Positions 23,548 to 64,000 are shown, counted from the first letter of the stretch. The stretch: DNA of 64,000 bases from a virus (IMGVR_UViG_3300025887_000009); one strand, 5' to 3'. The notes: generated by a model from the sequence alone, not told the origin. Translations and numbers: made by a program.

Positions 23548-24120
23548 ATGAAGAAGTTTTTAGAATATATAGTCGAAAGTGAAAAGAAATATGAATTTAA
23601 GATTCGTATTGCTGGTCACGACATACCGACTGACAGAGTAAGCAAGTTAGAAACAGCATTGCAAAAGTACGAGTTAGTGTCATTTGCATCTGGCAGGAAA
23701 ACACCAATACAAGAAAATCCGTTACACTTTCCGCAAATTCAAAATTGCGAAGTAATGACATATGATGCTGTATTAAAATACCCTGCAACAGCAACAATCT
23801 TGCAAAAGTATCTAGCTGATACAATTGGATTAGCAGAGACACATGTTCTTGTAACATCTGCAACTGAGCCTTTTGAAGAGCTTGCAAATCCAGCAGCTAA
23901 AAGCGACACATACGAGCCGATCCTTTCTAAAACAGAAATGGAAGATGCTGACCCCGATGCACAAAGCAAAGTAGGCTCAAACAGAGTAATGGACTTGCTT
24001 AAAGAACTAGAGCAAGCAAGAGCAGAACGCACTACAGGTAATCCAACAGAAGGAACTCCAGTAGGCGACAGCACAGATATATCCCCAATAGTAAACACCG
24101 ATTCGGTAGTAGGAGGTTAA
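23548..24120 (+). CDS. hypothetical protein (190 aa)
   Basis: ORF with RBS AAGGGGATTACAATG. Confidence 0.45.
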   Translation: MKKFLEYIVESEKKYEFKIRIAGHDIPTDRVSKLETALQKYELVSFASGRKTPIQENPLHFPQIQNCEVMTYDAVLKYPATATILQKYLADTIGLAETHVLVTSATEPFEELANPAAKSDTYEPILSKTEMEDADPDAQSKVGSNRVMDLLKELEQARAERTTGNPTEGTPVGDSTDISPIVNTDSVVGG

Positions 24121-24121
24121 C

Positions 24122-24955
24122 ATGGATAACCAAAAAGACATTTTTAAAGCTTTAATTCAAGCAGTAAAATCAAACGACGTAGACACTAAGCCAGCAAAGC
24201 AACTAAACGAAGCGGCAGCAGCAAATATCAGTCTTACAGGCGACAGCGCGGCAGAAGTAGAACAACTAATGCGTATGTTCAAAAATGCAGGAATGCCAGA
24301 TGCAGCGCCGGCGCCGATGTCTATTCAATCAGGCGAAGAAGAATCATGTGGGTCAGGCAGTGAAGAAGATCCTGAATCAATATCGATAGCAATGGGCGAC
24401 ATGGAAGACGAGCACGAAAATGGCGAATATGACAGCCAGTCTAACGAAGAATATGAAAATGAGCCAAATGACGAGTACCAAGACAACGAGTATATGCAAC
24501 ATGATTTAGCTGGCGGTATTAACAAGCCGAAGAAAATGTATGCAAAAGCACAAGATGGTGACAACGCAATGGCAGTTGAAACTATTAAGCAGTCTCTTTT
24601 GAAAGCACTTAGTGAAAAGATGCAAGATGACAAAGTCGCCGAAGCAAGCAAACCGTCATGGGAAAAAGAAGGCAGCTGGTCAAAGAATATAAAGAAGAAG
24701 CAAGACGAATATCTTCCTAAGAGTTCAAAGAAGCCAGTTGCTAAAGAAAAGAATACAACTGAAGCTTCAAAAGAAACGAAGTTTTCAGGCTATTCAAAAG
24801 GCAATAATAAAAAAGGGCATCCAGACCAAGGCAAGCTTGTTGGAGAGAGCAAAGAAGTTAACGATATTGTTAAACTTGCCCTAACAGAAGTAAACGCACC
24901 TTCTGCAAACAAAACACAACATGCACTGGACCTTAAGAAACTAGCAGGTATCTAA
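24122..24955 (+). CDS. acidic hypothetical protein, C-terminal ...DLKKLAGI (scaffold-like tail motif)
   Basis: RBS GGAGG. Acidic middle. The C-terminus matches the scaffold C-terminus ...DLRRLAGLK. Confidence 0.5.
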   Translation: MDNQKDIFKALIQAVKSNDVDTKPAKQLNEAAAANISLTGDSAAEVEQLMRMFKNAGMPDAAPAPMSIQSGEEESCGSGSEEDPESISIAMGDMEDEHENGEYDSQSNEEYENEPNDEYQDNEYMQHDLAGGINKPKKMYAKAQDGDNAMAVETIKQSLLKALSEKMQDDKVAEASKPSWEKEGSWSKNIKKKQDEYLPKSSKKPVAKEKNTTEASKETKFSGYSKGNNKKGHPDQGKLVGESKEVNDIVKLALTEVNAPSANKTQHALDLKKLAGI

Positions 24956-59313: not shown

Positions 59314-59595
59314 TTACGCATATTGTAACCTCATTAATGTTTTTTCTACTTCGGTGTATGTGTCGACTAGTTCAAGCCACTCGTCAAATAAAAGTGGTTT
59401 GCCTTTATAAAACCAATGTCGGTCGCCATTTGTATATTCAGCTGCTGGGCCGTCAACACGATGCAGTCGGCCTTCGAACCACCAACTGTATTCGCCATTT
59501 GCATATTCAACTGCCGGTCCATCAGTTCTGTGCAGCAATCCGTCTTGATACCAATACCGGTCGCCGCTTGCAAGTGTAGCTACTCCATTACGCAT
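59314..59595 (-). CDS. MORN-variant repeat protein (2 repeats)
   Basis: Last gene of the array. 'MRNGVATLASGDRYWYQDGLLHRTDGPAVEYANG...TLMRLQYA'. Confidence 0.65.
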   Translation of the reverse strand: MRNGVATLASGDRYWYQDGLLHRTDGPAVEYANGEYSWWFEGRLHRVDGPAAEYTNGDRHWFYKGKPLLFDEWLELVDTYTEVEKTLMRLQYA

Positions 59596-60142
59596 ATTGT
59601 AACCTCATTAATGTTTTTTCTACTTCTGTGTAATTGGCGTGTTCGAGCCAATCAATGAAGTTGTACTCGACGCCTCTGAAGTACCAAAGCTTAGAACCAC
59701 TTACGCGGTCAACTGCCGGACCGTCGGTTCGGTGTAATTCTCCGTTTTGATACCAAGCCCGATCGCCATTTGCGTATTCAGTTGCTGGTCCAGCTGTTCT
59801 GTGTCGTTGATTGTTTTGATGCCACTCCTTGGTGCCACTTGCGTATTCAACTGCTGGTCCGTCAATTCGATGTAGTTCTCCGTTTTGATACCACATCTTA
59901 GTGCCATTTGCACGTTCAGCAGCTGGGCCATCAGTTCTGTGTCGTTGCCCGTTTTGATACCACTCCTTATCACCATCTGCAAATTCGATTGCTGGTCCGT
60001 CAATTCTATGTAGTAAGCCGTGTTGATACCACTCCTTGTTGCCATCTGGGTATTCAACTGCTGGCCCATCGTCGCGATGTAGTAGACCGTTTTGATACCA
60101 AAACCGGTCGCCGGATTTGTTTGTGATCATTCTATTACGCAT
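59588..60142 (-). CDS. MORN-variant repeat protein (6 repeats)
   Basis: 23-aa repeats. 8-nt ATGCGTAA overlaps on both sides. Confidence 0.65.
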   Translation of the reverse strand: MRNRMITNKSGDRFWYQNGLLHRDDGPAVEYPDGNKEWYQHGLLHRIDGPAIEFADGDKEWYQNGQRHRTDGPAAERANGTKMWYQNGELHRIDGPAVEYASGTKEWHQNNQRHRTAGPATEYANGDRAWYQNGELHRTDGPAVDRVSGSKLWYFRGVEYNFIDWLEHANYTEVEKTLMRLQYA

Positions 60143-60551
60143 ACTGCAACCTCAACATTGTTTTTTGTACTTCGTTGAAAGCGACCTCTTCAAGCCAGTC
60201 ATTAAAAAAAAGTGGTTCATTTTTAAGGAACCAACGCCGGTTGCCATTTGCGTATTCAATAGCTGGTCCGGTGGTTCTGTGTAGTAGATCATTTTGATAC
60301 CAATACCGGTCGCCCGCAGCGAATTCAACTGCTGGTCCATCTGTTCTGTGTCGCTGGCCGTGTTGATGCCACTCTTTGCCGCCACTTGCATATTCAGCTG
60401 CTGGACCATTAGTGCGGTGTAGTCGGCCTTTAAAATACCAATGCTTGTCGCCGTTGTGCCATTCAACTGCTGGTCCATCTGTTCTGTGTCGTCGGTCGTT
60501 TTGGTACCAAATCTTGGTGCCATTTTTGTCTACGATCAATCCATTACGCAT
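60135..60551 (-). CDS. MORN-variant repeat protein (4 repeats)
   Basis: Same repeat family and C-terminal 'TMLRLQYA'. Confidence 0.65.
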   Translation of the reverse strand: MRNGLIVDKNGTKIWYQNDRRHRTDGPAVEWHNGDKHWYFKGRLHRTNGPAAEYASGGKEWHQHGQRHRTDGPAVEFAAGDRYWYQNDLLHRTTGPAIEYANGNRRWFLKNEPLFFNDWLEEVAFNEVQKTMLRLQYA

Positions 60552-61098
60552 ACTGCAACCTCAACATTGTTTTTTGTACTTCTGTGTAATTGACGTGTTC
60601 AAGCCAGTCATTTAAAAAAAACGGTTCACTTTTAAGGAACCAACGCTGATTGCCATTTGCGTATTCAATAGCTGGTCCATCTGTTCGGTGTAGTTGATTG
60701 TTTTGATACCAATACCGGTCGCCGCTTGCGCGTTCAATCGCTGGGCCATCTGTTCTGTGTCGTCCGTTGTGTTGATACCAATACCGGCCGCCGCTTGCGC
60801 GTTCAATCGCTGGGCCATCTGTTCGATGTAGTCGGCCTTCGAAATACCACTCCTTGTCGCTGTTGTACCATTCAATCGCTGGGCCATCTGTTCGATGTAG
60901 TCGGCCTTCGAAATACCACTGCTTGGTGCCATCGTTCCGTTCAATCGCTGGTCCATTTGTTCTGTGTCGTTGCCCGTGTTGATACCACTCCTTGCGGCCA
61001 TTTGCATATTCGACTGCTGGTCCTTGGTCTCGATGTAGTAGATCATCTTGATACCACACCTTAGCACCTTGAATGTCTACGATCAATCCATTACGCAT
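60544..61098 (-). CDS. MORN-variant repeat protein (6 repeats)
   Basis: Same repeat family. Confidence 0.65.
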   Translation of the reverse strand: MRNGLIVDIQGAKVWYQDDLLHRDQGPAVEYANGRKEWYQHGQRHRTNGPAIERNDGTKQWYFEGRLHRTDGPAIEWYNSDKEWYFEGRLHRTDGPAIERASGGRYWYQHNGRHRTDGPAIERASGDRYWYQNNQLHRTDGPAIEYANGNQRWFLKSEPFFLNDWLEHVNYTEVQKTMLRLQYA

Positions 61099-61645
61099 AC
61101 TGCAACCTCATCATTGTTTTTTCTACTTCGGTGATGTTAACAAGTTCAATCCAGTCGCCAAAGGAACACCTAACGCCTTCGAAGTACCACTTTTTGGTCC
61201 CACTTGAGCGCTCAATAGCTGGGCCATCTGTTCGGTGTAGTTCTCCGTCTTGATACCACACCTTTTTGCCAGTTGCATATTCAATCGCTGGGCCATCAAT
61301 TCGATGTAGTCGGTTGTGTTGATACCACTCCTTGGTGCCACTTGAGCGCTCGATTGCCGGGCCATCTGTTCGATGTAGTTCTCCGTCTTGATACCACACC
61401 TTTTTGCCAGTTGCATATTCAACTGCTGGTCCGTCAATTCGATGTAGTTCTCCGTGTTGATACCACTCCTTGGTGCCATCTGCGAATTCAACTGCTGGTC
61501 CGTCAATTCGATGTAGTTCTCCGTTTTGATACCACTCCTTGTGGACATCTGCATATTCAACAGCTGGACCATCCGTTCGATGTAGTTGGCCGTTTTGATA
61601 CCAAGTCTTGGTTCCATCTCCTTCTATGATCAATCCATTACGCAT
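61091..61645 (-). CDS. MORN-variant repeat protein (6 repeats)
   Basis: Same repeat family. Confidence 0.65.
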   Translation of the reverse strand: MRNGLIIEGDGTKTWYQNGQLHRTDGPAVEYADVHKEWYQNGELHRIDGPAVEFADGTKEWYQHGELHRIDGPAVEYATGKKVWYQDGELHRTDGPAIERSSGTKEWYQHNRLHRIDGPAIEYATGKKVWYQDGELHRTDGPAIERSSGTKKWYFEGVRCSFGDWIELVNITEVEKTMMRLQYA

Positions 61646-61985
61646 ATTGTAACCTCATTAACGTTTTTTGTGCTTCGGTATAATCGGTGTGTTCAAGCCA
61701 TTGGTCGAAGCTGTATATATCGCCTTTGATGAACCACAACTTGGTGCTGCTTGAATGTTCAACTGCTGGACCATCTATTCTGTGTCGTTGCCCGTGTTGA
61801 TACCACTCCTTGGTGCCATCGCTCCATTCAGCTGCTGGTCCATCTTCGCGATGTAGTAGATTGTTTTGATACCACATCTTGCGGCCATTTGGATATTCAA
61901 CTGCTGGCCCGTCAACACGATGTAGTTCTCCGTTTTGATACCAAGACTTAGTGCCATTTTCGGTTATGGTCAATCCATTACGCAT
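61638..61985 (-). CDS. MORN-variant repeat protein (3 repeats)
   Basis: Same repeat family. The first ~60 nt are identical to the next gene. Confidence 0.65.
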   Translation of the reverse strand: MRNGLTITENGTKSWYQNGELHRVDGPAVEYPNGRKMWYQNNLLHREDGPAAEWSDGTKEWYQHGQRHRIDGPAVEHSSSTKLWFIKGDIYSFDQWLEHTDYTEAQKTLMRLQYA

Positions 61986-62325
61986 ATTGTAACCTCATTA
62001 ACGTTTTTTGTGCTTCGGTATAATCGGTGTGTTCAAGCCATTTGTCGAAGCTGTACCTGATGCCTTTGATGTACCAATACCGTTCGCCATCTGTATATTC
62101 AACTGCTGGGCCATCTGTTCGATGTAGCTGATTGTTTTGATACCAAAAATGATTGCCATTTGGATATTCAATAGCTGGTCCGTCAATTCGATGTAGTTCT
62201 CCGTTTTGATACCACTCCTTATCGCCATCTGCAAATTCGATTGCTGGTCCATCGGTTTGATGCAGTAGATTGTTTTGATACCAAGACTTAGTGCCATTTT
62301 CGGTTATGATCAATCCATTACGCAT
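61978..62325 (-). CDS. MORN-variant repeat protein (3 repeats), first of array
   Basis: RBS AGGAAGAAATATG on the minus strand. Same repeat family. Confidence 0.65.
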   Translation of the reverse strand: MRNGLIITENGTKSWYQNNLLHQTDGPAIEFADGDKEWYQNGELHRIDGPAIEYPNGNHFWYQNNQLHRTDGPAVEYTDGERYWYIKGIRYSFDKWLEHTDYTEAQKTLMRLQYA

Positions 62326-62755: not shown

Positions 62756-62784
62756 ACTATAACACGGAAAGCGCAACCTGTCAA
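62756..62784 (-). promoter_or_regulatory. sigma70-type promoter on minus strand (TTGACA-N17-TATAGT)
   Basis: rc of 62779-62784 gives TTGACA. rc of 62756-62761 gives TATAGT. Drives the membrane protein and MORN array operon. Confidence 0.5.
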
Positions 62785-62928
62785 GAGAAAGCAGCGTAGC
62801 TGCCTCAGCAAAAATTTTTTAGACGTTTAATGTACATGCTTTTTCTACACCCACTCACAGAAGCTGCGCTTCTCGTCGTAGGGTTCCGAAACGCAGTATA
62901 GCTCAGATTCTTTTCTTAGAAACTCGCT

Positions 62929-62947
62929 ATTCTCTAAGTTAGAGAAT
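62929..62947. other. 9-bp inverted repeat hairpin overlapping the stop of the ORF at 62939..63193
   Basis: ATTCTCTAA-g-TTAGAGAAT. T-run follows on the plus strand. Confidence 0.35.
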
Positions 62948-63193
62948 TTTGTTCTCTTCTATGTTAACAGTATAGTAGTCGGAGTACCGTGAACCCAGAA
63001 GTTCGAATAGTACAAGAGTAGCATCGCTTGCGCGTGTGTGCTCTAAGACTAGTTTGTAATCATCTTCACGGTGCACGGTTCTAGGTGAGCCACTGTGGGC
63101 TATGGTGTTAACAAGGTTACCGACTATTCGCTTGCTGAGTGCAGGCATGGTTTTAAGAGCTGGGGTGAAGTTGATGTTGTATATGGTTCTCAC
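62939..63193 (-). CDS. hypothetical protein (84 aa)
   Basis: ORF at the edge of the non-coding repeat region. A hairpin overlaps its stop. Confidence 0.35.
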   Translation of the reverse strand: MRTIYNINFTPALKTMPALSKRIVGNLVNTIAHSGSPRTVHREDDYKLVLEHTRASDATLVLFELLGSRYSDYYTVNIEENKIL

Positions 63194-63534
63194 AGTGTAT
63201 ATATCATCTTACACTGTATGCTATGGTACTCGTCTGGTGCAGTCTGCACCATTCGCAGCTGGCTTCGTTCGCTTCGCGACTCGAGCTGAGTCAGCTTCGC
63301 TTTTGTGTAGTGCCCGAAATGGGTCCTGCGTGTTCTTAAAAATTTCCCGCGCAGTTTTTTATGGTGAAGTACTTATAGATGGTAGGTGGTGATTCTGCAT
63401 CACCCAGTTTTAAAAATGTTGATTTAAATTTGAAATTAAATAATTTGAAATCCGTTTAGCGTTTAGTGTTGTAAAGCAAATAATTAATTTATATACCCCG
63501 ACCCCCCTCTTTTTTTATTTTTTATTTTTTTATT

Positions 63535-63570
63535 TTTGTTTGTTACTTTGTTTGTTACTTTGTTTGTTAC
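63535..63570. repeat. 3 x 12-bp tandem repeat TTTGTTTGTTAC in AT-rich non-coding region
   Basis: Perfect triplication, preceded by T7/T6/T7/T5 runs. Confidence 0.8.
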
Positions 63571-63604
63571 TATACATATACTGTACACTACTGCGCTACG
63601 CATT

Positions 63605-63646
63605 GCAAGCACTAATATAATTTATTTTAATGCATTTAGTGCTTGC
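63605..63646. repeat. 11-bp perfect inverted repeat GCAAGCACTAA / TTAGTGCTTGC with 20-nt AT-rich loop
   Basis: Arms at 63605-63615 and 63636-63646. Confidence 0.75.
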
Positions 63647-63648
63647 GC

Positions 63649-64000
63649 TAGTGCTGCGCAACTGCTATAACATATGTATAGCAACGCAACAAACAGCAAA
63701 GTAGCACAGTATGTACACAGCAACGCATTACGCAAACTACACAACGCAAAAGCGCGCAAACATTGCACAAGCAGCATTGTACGCAAAGCTTATTAAAAAG
63801 CTTAACAAGTACAACGCAAAGCACAACACAAACTACGTGCTGCAAGCAACAACACAAGCTAGCGTATGCAATACGCAAGTGTACGTAACACTTGCAATTA
63901 CTTGCAAAAAGTATAAGCAAGCTGTTAAGTTGTTTAACAAAACAGTAAGTGCGTTTTACAAGCAACTTAACGACTCGCACGATTCTAACAGCTTTGTTGT
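63649..64000. other. strand-biased A+C-rich (T-poor) low-complexity non-coding region with recurring ACGCAA/GCAAGC words
   Basis: No plausible ORF. Only a Cys-rich antisense artefact ORF is present. Composition is unlike the rest of the genome. Confidence 0.5.

Follow-up and report, generated by a model that had tools for sequence, protein, structure and literature searches.

Positions 63194 to 64000 of a 64,000-nucleotide stretch of virus DNA (IMGVR_UViG_3300025887_000009; this whole stretch is called the window) were analysed. The region is very probably a control region between two divergent small genes, with host-type promoters placed back to back. A first-pass annotation had described about 800 bp of non-coding DNA with iteron-like repeats. 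The true non-coding DNA covers 63194–63710 (517 bp), because a minus-strand gene of 84 amino acids (aa) ends at 63193 and a plus-strand gene of 106 aa, which opens with the ATG at 63711, continues past the window end. P(+) and P(−), two predicted promoters of bacterial sigma70 type that mirror each other, would lie back to back at 63566–63685, and their −35 boxes would be the two arms of an 11-bp inverted repeat. Transcription from P(+) would start at approximately 63678–63681 and would pass through a 30-nt A/C-rich leader into the 106-aa gene. Transcription from P(−) would start at approximately 63570–63573; its RNA would begin with three copies of a 12-mer and a purine tract of approximately 80 nt and would then cross approximately 375 nt of conserved untranslated sequence to reach the 84-aa gene (63193–62939). 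The region is ordinary regulatory architecture, and the first-pass annotation described real sequence that was in part misread.

The source virus is an uncultured T4-core jumbo myovirus and a distant relative of Pseudomonas phage PA5oct, a jumbo phage of 287 kb. This identity follows from the T4-type portal gene (Pfam Portal_T4), inside which the window starts, from a Gp23-type capsid gene in the window and from the 71% DNA identity of this capsid gene to that of PA5oct, which was the sole DNA-level match among 50,697 phage records. Metagenome contigs were found by exact-protein look-up of a neighbouring gene and matched the window tail at 99.6–99.9%. The matching contigs included sequences of 208,784 and 192,302 bp and jointly gave 10 kb past position 64000. 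The diverged lineages used for comparison were L120 (L120–L129; 91% identical), L013, L011 and L012.

A recurrent class of predicted host-type promoters

The coordinates of the features are given in Table 1. The segment 63632–63706, which contains P(+), recurred at 92% identity 8 kb further on in the phage, directly before an 84-aa gene, and once more ahead of a cell-wall hydrolase gene. Promoter sites were collected by the word TATAGYAAC, and 12 sites in 10.5 kb (63.5–74 kb) were aligned. The alignment gave TTGACA/TTGCAy, a 17-nt spacer, TAtAAc (often TGn-extended) or TAGTGT, 5–7 nt, and an initiation box TA(T/C)AGCAAC, after which an A/C-rich leader, a Shine–Dalgarno (SD) sequence and ATG followed. 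The columns TTG, TA and TA-AG-AA were invariant over the 12 sites, and some sister sites had the full TTGACA. The 12 sites were turned into a sequence-only covariance model, termed R1, with which the window and related loci were searched. Only two strong matches were obtained in the 64-kb window, namely P(+) at 63630–63698(+) with 50 bits (E 2e-14) and P(−) at 63553–63620(−) with 42 bits (E 5e-12), both of which were sites of the training set. In the next 10 kb, approximately 13 sites were matched, all of them on the coding strand, before small genes and 20–35 nt ahead of the SD sequence and ATG. Moreover, relatives outside the training set were matched in L011, L012, L013 and L120 (E 1e-4 to 7e-14), including, for P(+), L013 (7e-14) and L120 (3e-13). 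P(−) was kept in L013 and occurred as a tandem duplicate in L120. The promoter class is repeated ahead of nearly every small gene of the adjoining region. The motif words occurred nowhere else in the window; the statement that the region is unlike anything else in the window therefore holds for the promoter motif, but it does not hold for the base composition.

The chance occurrence of repeats was judged by first-order Markov simulations of the region. The perfect 11-bp inverted repeat named in the first-pass annotation (63605–63615 and 63636–63646) was matched in 2 of 300 simulations, and the perfect TTTGTTTGTTAC tandem, which was found by Tandem Repeats Finder (TRF) with 3.1 copies at 63535–63571, in none of 300. 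The hairpin GCAAGC..GCTTGC likewise stood ahead of promoters in L001, L011 and L012, with loops of 5–9 nt. Ahead of the 106-aa gene, the words CTTGC and TGCTA and the leader CAAACAGCAAAG did not vary over four lineages, and CAACAAACAGCAAAG followed by 9–10 nt and ATG was kept in the window, L013, L011, L012 and a second cassette of the window's phage. The spacer was exactly 17 nt in both P(+) and P(−), and the −35 boxes agreed with TTGACA at three of six positions in P(+) (TTGCGC) and at four of six in P(−) (TTGCAA). The minus-strand purine tract would form the start of the predicted P(−) transcript, in which the TTTGTTTGTTAC tandem reads as three copies of GTAACAAACAAA. In L120, this tract had two copies of the 12-mer, and its A-runs differed slightly in length; the leaders of sister promoters resembled it, for example GCAACAAACAAACAAGAGG.

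Table 1. Positions of the genes, promoters, repeats and hairpins in and beside the region (window coordinates).
Feature	Positions	Strand	Basis
Orphan gene of 84 aa, GTG start, first gene after P(−)	62939–63193	−	Open reading frame and L120 comparison
Predicted 5′ leader of P(−), approximately 375 nt, without conserved open reading frame	63194–63565	−	L120 comparison
Hairpin GGTGCAG-TCT-CTGCACC	63236–63250		−9.6 kcal/mol, z −3.8; stem kept in L120 despite a 2-nt loop deletion
Compound hairpin of three GCTTCG and the GACTC..GAGTC palindrome, then CGCTTTTGTG; terminator-like	63257–63307	+	Folding
Hairpin CUGCGUG..CGCGCAG and T6; terminator-like	63326–63360	+	−9.0 kcal/mol, z −2.7
Hairpin GGUGGUG..CAUCACC and AGTTTT; terminator-like	63385–63412	+	−9.5 kcal/mol, z −2.4; in invariant block
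Two AATTTGAAAT (15 nt apart) and adjacent two CGTTTAG, in AT-rich core	63427–63466		Repeat search
Homopurine tract: three GTAACAAACAAA, A-runs, then GAGGGGGGTCGGGG	63496–63571	−	TRF and sequence
Predicted P(−): −35 TTGCAA 63608–63603, 17-nt spacer, −10 TACAGT 63585–63580	63566–63608	−	R1 match
Predicted P(−), downstream part: ATATG, then initiation box TATAGTAAC	63574–63566 (box)	−	Alignment with 11 sister promoters
Inverted repeat GCAAGCACTAA / TTAGTGCTTGC, 11 bp, perfect, 20-nt AT-rich spacer	63605–63646		−17.5 kcal/mol, z −3.6
Predicted P(+): −35 TTGCGC 63643–63648, 17-nt spacer, extended −10 TGC-TATAAC 63663–63671	63643–63685	+	R1 match
Predicted P(+), downstream part: ATATG, then initiation box TATAGCAAC	63677–63685 (box)	+	R1 match, sister alignment
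mRNA leader of P(+), A/C-rich, GCAACAAACAGCAAAGTAGCACAGT, directly before ATG	63686–63710	+	Conservation
First 290 nt of the 106-aa gene	63711–64000	+	Open frame from ATG 63711

The promoters are most likely read by the host sigma70 RNA polymerase, since PA5oct was reported to depend on the host RNA polymerase and to have 32 predicted promoters of the type TTGAC / TATAATA (PMC7318152). The promoters of the present class resemble those of PA5oct in the virus lineage (core genes), in a TTGAC(A)-like −35 box, in a TATAA-type −10 box and in an intergenic position before genes. They differ in the conserved initiation box TA(T/C)AGCAAC and the A/C-rich leader, which are added here, and in a sub-class that has TTGCnn for TTGACA and a −35 box embedded in the GCAAGC..GCTTGC hairpin. 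Their timing is probably early, as the genes behind them are small orphans in a dense array. T4-like phages have early regions in which small orphan genes form arrays, each gene behind a strong host-type promoter. The adjoining region is similar in that many genes of 50–180 aa have promoters of their own and a composition distinct from that of the structural module, with a GC step from 0.40 to 0.48. In contrast, the promoter cassette here overlaps the hairpin of the upstream gene, the 106-aa cassette is inverted relative to all its neighbours, and the early timing is inferred.

A second sub-class of promoters had a perfect palindrome within the 17-nt spacer (gcacTTGACActagc-N7-gctagTGT) and was located 7.8–9.6 kb past the window end (L008 9803–9867, 11241–11304 and 11514–11582). 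A dimeric regulator could use this spacer palindrome as its operator. The T4-type late promoter TATAAATA occurred six times against 5.5 expected; TATAAATT in the non-coding stretch was dropped as a late promoter because TATAAATA was not enriched. The region 62800–64000 had zero matches by megablast and blastn in the 50,697 phage records, it had no DNA similarity to PA5oct, and an exact 49-mer had 0 matches in IMG/VR. The 106 single-copy IMG/VR matches of the 16-mer leader GCAACAAACAGCAAAG were consistent with chance.

The two divergent orphan genes

The region, with its A/C-rich 350 bp, had been proposed as a replication origin or initiator-binding array, a packaging or terminal region, or a non-coding RNA. 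The segment from 63711 is a genuine conserved protein-coding gene, with homologues at 57–89% identity. Its open reading frame (ORF) stops 31 nt beyond the window end in the metagenome contigs, and it was absent from the ORF listing because the lister skips ORFs that run off an end. The ORF was annotated as a gene on at least 14 contigs. Full-length homologues of the 106-aa protein were found at 89, 61, 61 and 57% identity, with common first residues, start, stop and C-terminus. The differences were concentrated at third codon positions, with counts by position of 23/24/46, 31/26/47 and 9/5/16, and 8/5/16 against the L120 lineage; in the codon alignments, many of the changes were synonymous. 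The AlphaFold (AF2) model had the order beta-alpha-beta-beta-alpha-beta with a predicted local distance difference test (pLDDT) score of 70.6, which denotes moderate confidence, and a fold search with this model returned only generic ferredoxin-like folds, with a template modelling (TM) score of approximately 0.6 to de novo designs. The product is an orphan protein with a predicted ferredoxin-like fold. Neither the 106-aa nor the 84-aa protein had anything above threshold in Pfam or PHROGs. The 106-aa family had 2 representatives among 1.84 billion cluster representatives, and a profile search found its own family only; zero tblastn matches were obtained in the cultured phages (50,697 records), and no relatives in the IMG/VR scan.

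The composition of this segment was milder than described. The positions 63650–64000, which had been called almost T-free, contain 39% A, 23% C, 17% G and 20.5% T, compared with 28% T in the whole window. Their AT skew of 0.31 lies at the 95th percentile of 350-bp windows, and stronger skews of 0.42–0.43 were found at 1831–1981 and 23881–24601. ACGCAA occurs 6 times within the ORF, and the ACGCAA/GCAAGC words are a product of the codon and amino-acid usage of the 106-aa gene (GCA, CAA, AAC, ACG, TAC). The similar A/C-rich flavour of the first 80 nt of the window was correctly noted; these nucleotides lie inside the portal gene, and their bias is the general coding-strand bias of the phage. A 110-aa minus-strand ORF at 63648–63980 is a Cys/Leu/Val-rich complement of the A/C-rich coding strand, and the conserved plus-strand frame was preferred to it.

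The 106-aa cassette (promoter and ORF) was flanked by inverted repeats of 62 nt at 82% and 25 nt at 100%, located at 63558–63628 of the window and 54–180 nt past the window end (L008 2097–2223). The right-hand copy carried the 15-mer ACAGCGCAGTAGTGT repeated 2.6 times. This copy was absent in L120 and L013, where a plain hairpin-plus-T-run terminator stood instead. The cassette and the gene of a homing endonuclease are the only plus-strand genes within more than 20 kb, all others being on the minus strand, which suggests that promoter modules took part in an inversion or a gene conversion in the past.

The 84-aa ORF is also a real gene, as judged by its substitutions. It differed from L120 at 21 positions, split 5/2/14 over the three codon positions; 13 codons changed synonymously and 7 non-synonymously. 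Of the synonymous changes, four lay in the first 15 codons, upstream of an internal ATG used by some gene callers, indicating that the gene is translated from the GTG. The only homologues of its protein were 93–99% identical. A 96-aa plus-strand ORF at 63102–63392, which is called by some pipelines, was rejected; it overlaps the 84-aa gene in antisense, and +1/−2 insertions and deletions (indels) in L120 shift its frame.

Role of the conserved non-coding stretch

The block formed by the 106-aa gene, the divergent promoters, the non-coding stretch and the 84-aa gene was intact in L120, and the flanking genes were rearranged. The 517 bp of non-coding DNA were conserved at approximately 90% in this relative. 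Outside one variable patch, the non-coding stretch was 83–91% identical to L120, similar to the two genes (91–93%). Two blocks of 73–77 nt were near-invariant: 63340–63416 was identical and 63441–63513 had two substitutions. The variable patch at 63417–63440 had 46% identity and a 12-nt indel. A leader of approximately 375 nt is implied for the 84-aa gene because P(−) is its sole predicted promoter.

The repeats listed in the first-pass annotation were recovered in this stretch. GCTTCG was present three times (63262, 63271 and 63294), and three or more copies arose in 0 of 1000 simulations, with the caveat that the word was picked after having been seen. The palindrome GACTCGAGCTGAGTC was located at 63278–63292; palindromes of up to 7 nt were not above chance in the region (129 of 300 simulations). 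AATTTGAAAT was found at 63427 and 63442, a repeat of equal length arising in 5 of 300 simulations (a marginal result), CGTTTAG was found twice at 63453–63466, and T-runs were found at 63510–63541. L120 keeps the second AATTTGAAAT and both CGTTTAG; the first AATTTGAAAT was not conserved. These repeats were wrongly termed iteron-like, as the units are 7–12 nt long, have 2–3 copies with contiguous or irregular spacing and do not recur elsewhere in 74 kb; an iteron array would consist of at least three evenly spaced direct repeats of about 17–22 bp.

The hairpin at 63257–63307 had −19.1 kcal/mol on the plus strand versus −12.6 on the minus strand, and its z-score against shuffles was not significant (−0.66). 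Two substitutions were present in L120, and the pairing was kept only on the plus strand (GU to AU and UA to UG). For the hairpin at 63326–63360, the 3′ arm and the T-run lie in the invariant block, and the two L120 substitutions fall at the base of the 5′ arm and in the loop. A 26-aa plus-strand ORF at 63381–63461 (MVGGDSASPSFK...LKSV), whose frame and stop were kept in L120 (30 aa) across the 12-nt indel, had no SD sequence and no promoter; the estimate for its occurrence by chance was about 1 in 10, and it was judged to be probably a chance ORF.

Several observations weigh against a reading of the region as a plain pair of divergent promoters with leaders. The start sites and the timing of P(+) and P(−) are predictions. 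The final C of the P(+) −10 box (TATAAC) is atypical for sigma70, which the TGn extension presumably offsets. A generic promoter scanner flagged neither promoter; P(+) was missed because the scanner requires T at the last −10 position. The 375-nt leader is unusually long compared with the leaders of 20–35 nt at the sister promoters. Moreover, three hairpin-plus-T-run elements lie on the opposite (plus) strand of the leader and are unexplained by the model. The near-invariant blocks also imply a function of the non-coding stretch. In order of likelihood, the stretch would be a long regulatory leader, a separate non-coding RNA, or a transcription-primed origin. That the P(−) unit is a dedicated element rather than a messenger leader, in which the promoter would fire into the A-rich purine tract with its closing G-run and then the near-invariant blocks, serving as an R-loop origin or as the source of an abundant A-rich decoy RNA, is unlikely.

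A free-standing non-coding RNA within 63194–63565 was considered unlikely. This RNA would be either an A-rich regulatory or sponge RNA made from P(−) or a plus-strand small RNA antisense to the leader, which would end at the hairpin-plus-T-run elements at 63300, 63360 and 63410. The idea of a non-coding RNA in the first-pass annotation is possible for these positions, which are predicted to be transcribed without translation, but not for the A/C-rich 350 bp, which is a protein gene. The consensus fold of the window and L120 was more stable on the plus strand (−49.9 versus −34.7 kcal/mol) and included seven G-U pairs and four one-sided pairing-preserving changes, with none broken; the three terminator-like elements on the same strand and the near-invariant blocks are likewise consistent with such an RNA. 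Furthermore, PA5oct expresses four ORF-less RNAs of 236–620 nt (ncRNA001–004), two of them abundantly, which were defined by RNA sequencing (RNA-seq) and have no known promoters (PMC7318152). The present stretch likewise lacks an ORF, is of comparable length and is predicted to be transcribed, in a jumbo phage related to PA5oct; it has no sequence similarity to the PA5oct RNAs, and it is defined by a predicted promoter, whereas those of PA5oct are defined by RNA-seq. However, a 2.1-kb segment around the region gave no Rfam 15 match at a threshold as permissive as E ≤ 1, the folding z-scores of the whole stretch were weak (−1.6 on the minus strand and −2.1 on the plus strand), and the sigma70 scan and R1 found no plus-strand promoter upstream of the non-coding stretch. 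Only two lineages were compared, and therefore no two-sided compensatory changes were seen.

In L012, four ORF-less tandem-repeat units stood directly behind promoter modules, which also favours a non-coding RNA. These arrays, at 149–367, 897–1034, 1500–1586 and 2522–2636, had units of 29, 49 and 53 nt and a 12-mer with 9.6 copies, and they were poor in T and rich in purines, with GAAGCG words. Tandem repeats close to promoters seem to recur as a trait of the phage group. Because ORF-less promoter-plus-repeat units recur in L012, there are hints that the group may make short repeat-bearing non-coding transcripts.

A transcription-primed replication origin was considered decidedly unlikely. P(−) would fire into the easily unwound AT-rich homopurine tract, and the A/G-rich RNA would stay as an R-loop and prime the leading strand. 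Precedents for R-loop or promoter origins are T4 oriF and oriG, the T7 primary origin and ColE1. T4 oriF(uvsY) and oriG(34) and the T7 primary origin also have a promoter directly before an AT-rich meltable stretch, and the tandem P(−) of the L120 lineage recalls the paired promoters at the T7 origin. By contrast, the T4 origins use MotA-dependent middle promoters and the T7 origin uses promoters of the phage RNA polymerase. P(−) is followed at once by approximately 80 nt of pure purine RNA that would end in GAGGGGGGUCGGGG, the GC content is 26% over 63400–63540, no ORF follows the SD-like AAGAGGGG, and the stretch is conserved as described, with P(−) duplicated in L120. However, A-rich leaders are general in the promoter class, and therefore the tract could be an expanded leader. 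An AT-rich unwinding element is not specific to origins, and the other features of iteron origins (a repeat array, an initiator gene and a skew switch) were absent. No DnaA-box-like or iteron-like array was found in the region, no replication gene adjoins it (the helicases are located at 38–48 kb), and no GC-skew inflection was found at 63–64 kb; the cumulative maximum lies at 49–50 kb, where the gene orientation switches. No origin has been mapped in the phage clade, and the PA5oct paper does not mention one (PMC7318152).

It is highly improbable that the region is a genome terminus or packaging signal, that is, a pac or cos site or the boundary of a direct terminal repeat. The region is non-coding, repeat-rich and AT-rich, as such a site might be, and PA5oct-type phages have long terminal repeats that carry non-coding RNAs (PMC7318152). 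However, the 208,784-bp contig continues across the region, and the 10 kb to either side of it are identical in sequence. No assembly ends in it, although assemblies cannot exclude a terminal-repeat boundary; other contigs break in an array of MORN-like genes or within a UDP-glucose dehydrogenase gene. Moreover, the portal gene is approximately 63 kb away, and no terminase gene was seen among the neighbours.

Genomic setting and meaning

Up to approximately 49 kb the genes of the window lie on the plus strand, and from approximately 50 kb they lie on the minus strand over the rest of the window. The window also has a tail sheath gene and encodes helicases of the DnaB and other types, and no tRNA or tmRNA and no Rfam family at the gathering threshold were found in the whole window. 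The GC content is approximately 0.40 over most of the window and 0.47–0.49 in the small-gene region past approximately 64000 (64–74 kb). The latter region also encodes an HNH/NUMOD homing endonuclease, a UDP-glucose dehydrogenase, an HD-domain protein and a cell-wall hydrolase. The neighbouring genes of the control region are orphans of 84, 106 and 123 aa. Before the 123-aa gene, a near-consensus sigma70 promoter (TTGACA-17-TATAGT with an upstream TG, 11/12) was located at 62756–62784 (−), and a short hairpin with a T-run at 62791–62803, just before this promoter, would end the 84-aa transcription unit. Six tandem paralogous genes at 59588–62325 (−) had WYxNGxxHRxDGPA repeats, which are MORN-like, and a Pfam DUF6745 match. 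The copy number of this array differed among near-identical contigs, with two more copies in L007 and L009; in L120 it is found on the opposite side of the block of the 106-aa and 84-aa genes, and assemblies tend to break in it.

What looked like an exotic 800-bp repeat region can be resolved into an orphan gene, a leader and predicted host-type promoters in divergent orientation. From the analysis, a promoter consensus was obtained that can be applied to an uncultured jumbo phage lineage (TTGACA/TTGCAy, 17 nt, TAtAAc, 5–7 nt, TAyAGCAAC and an A/C leader). On one side of the border marked by this consensus lies the half of the genome with the structural and replication genes, and on the other side the dense small-gene region, which is probably early. 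Furthermore, the conserved 375-nt ORF-less stretch behind P(−) is a concrete candidate for a regulatory RNA or an origin in a clade for which none has been defined.

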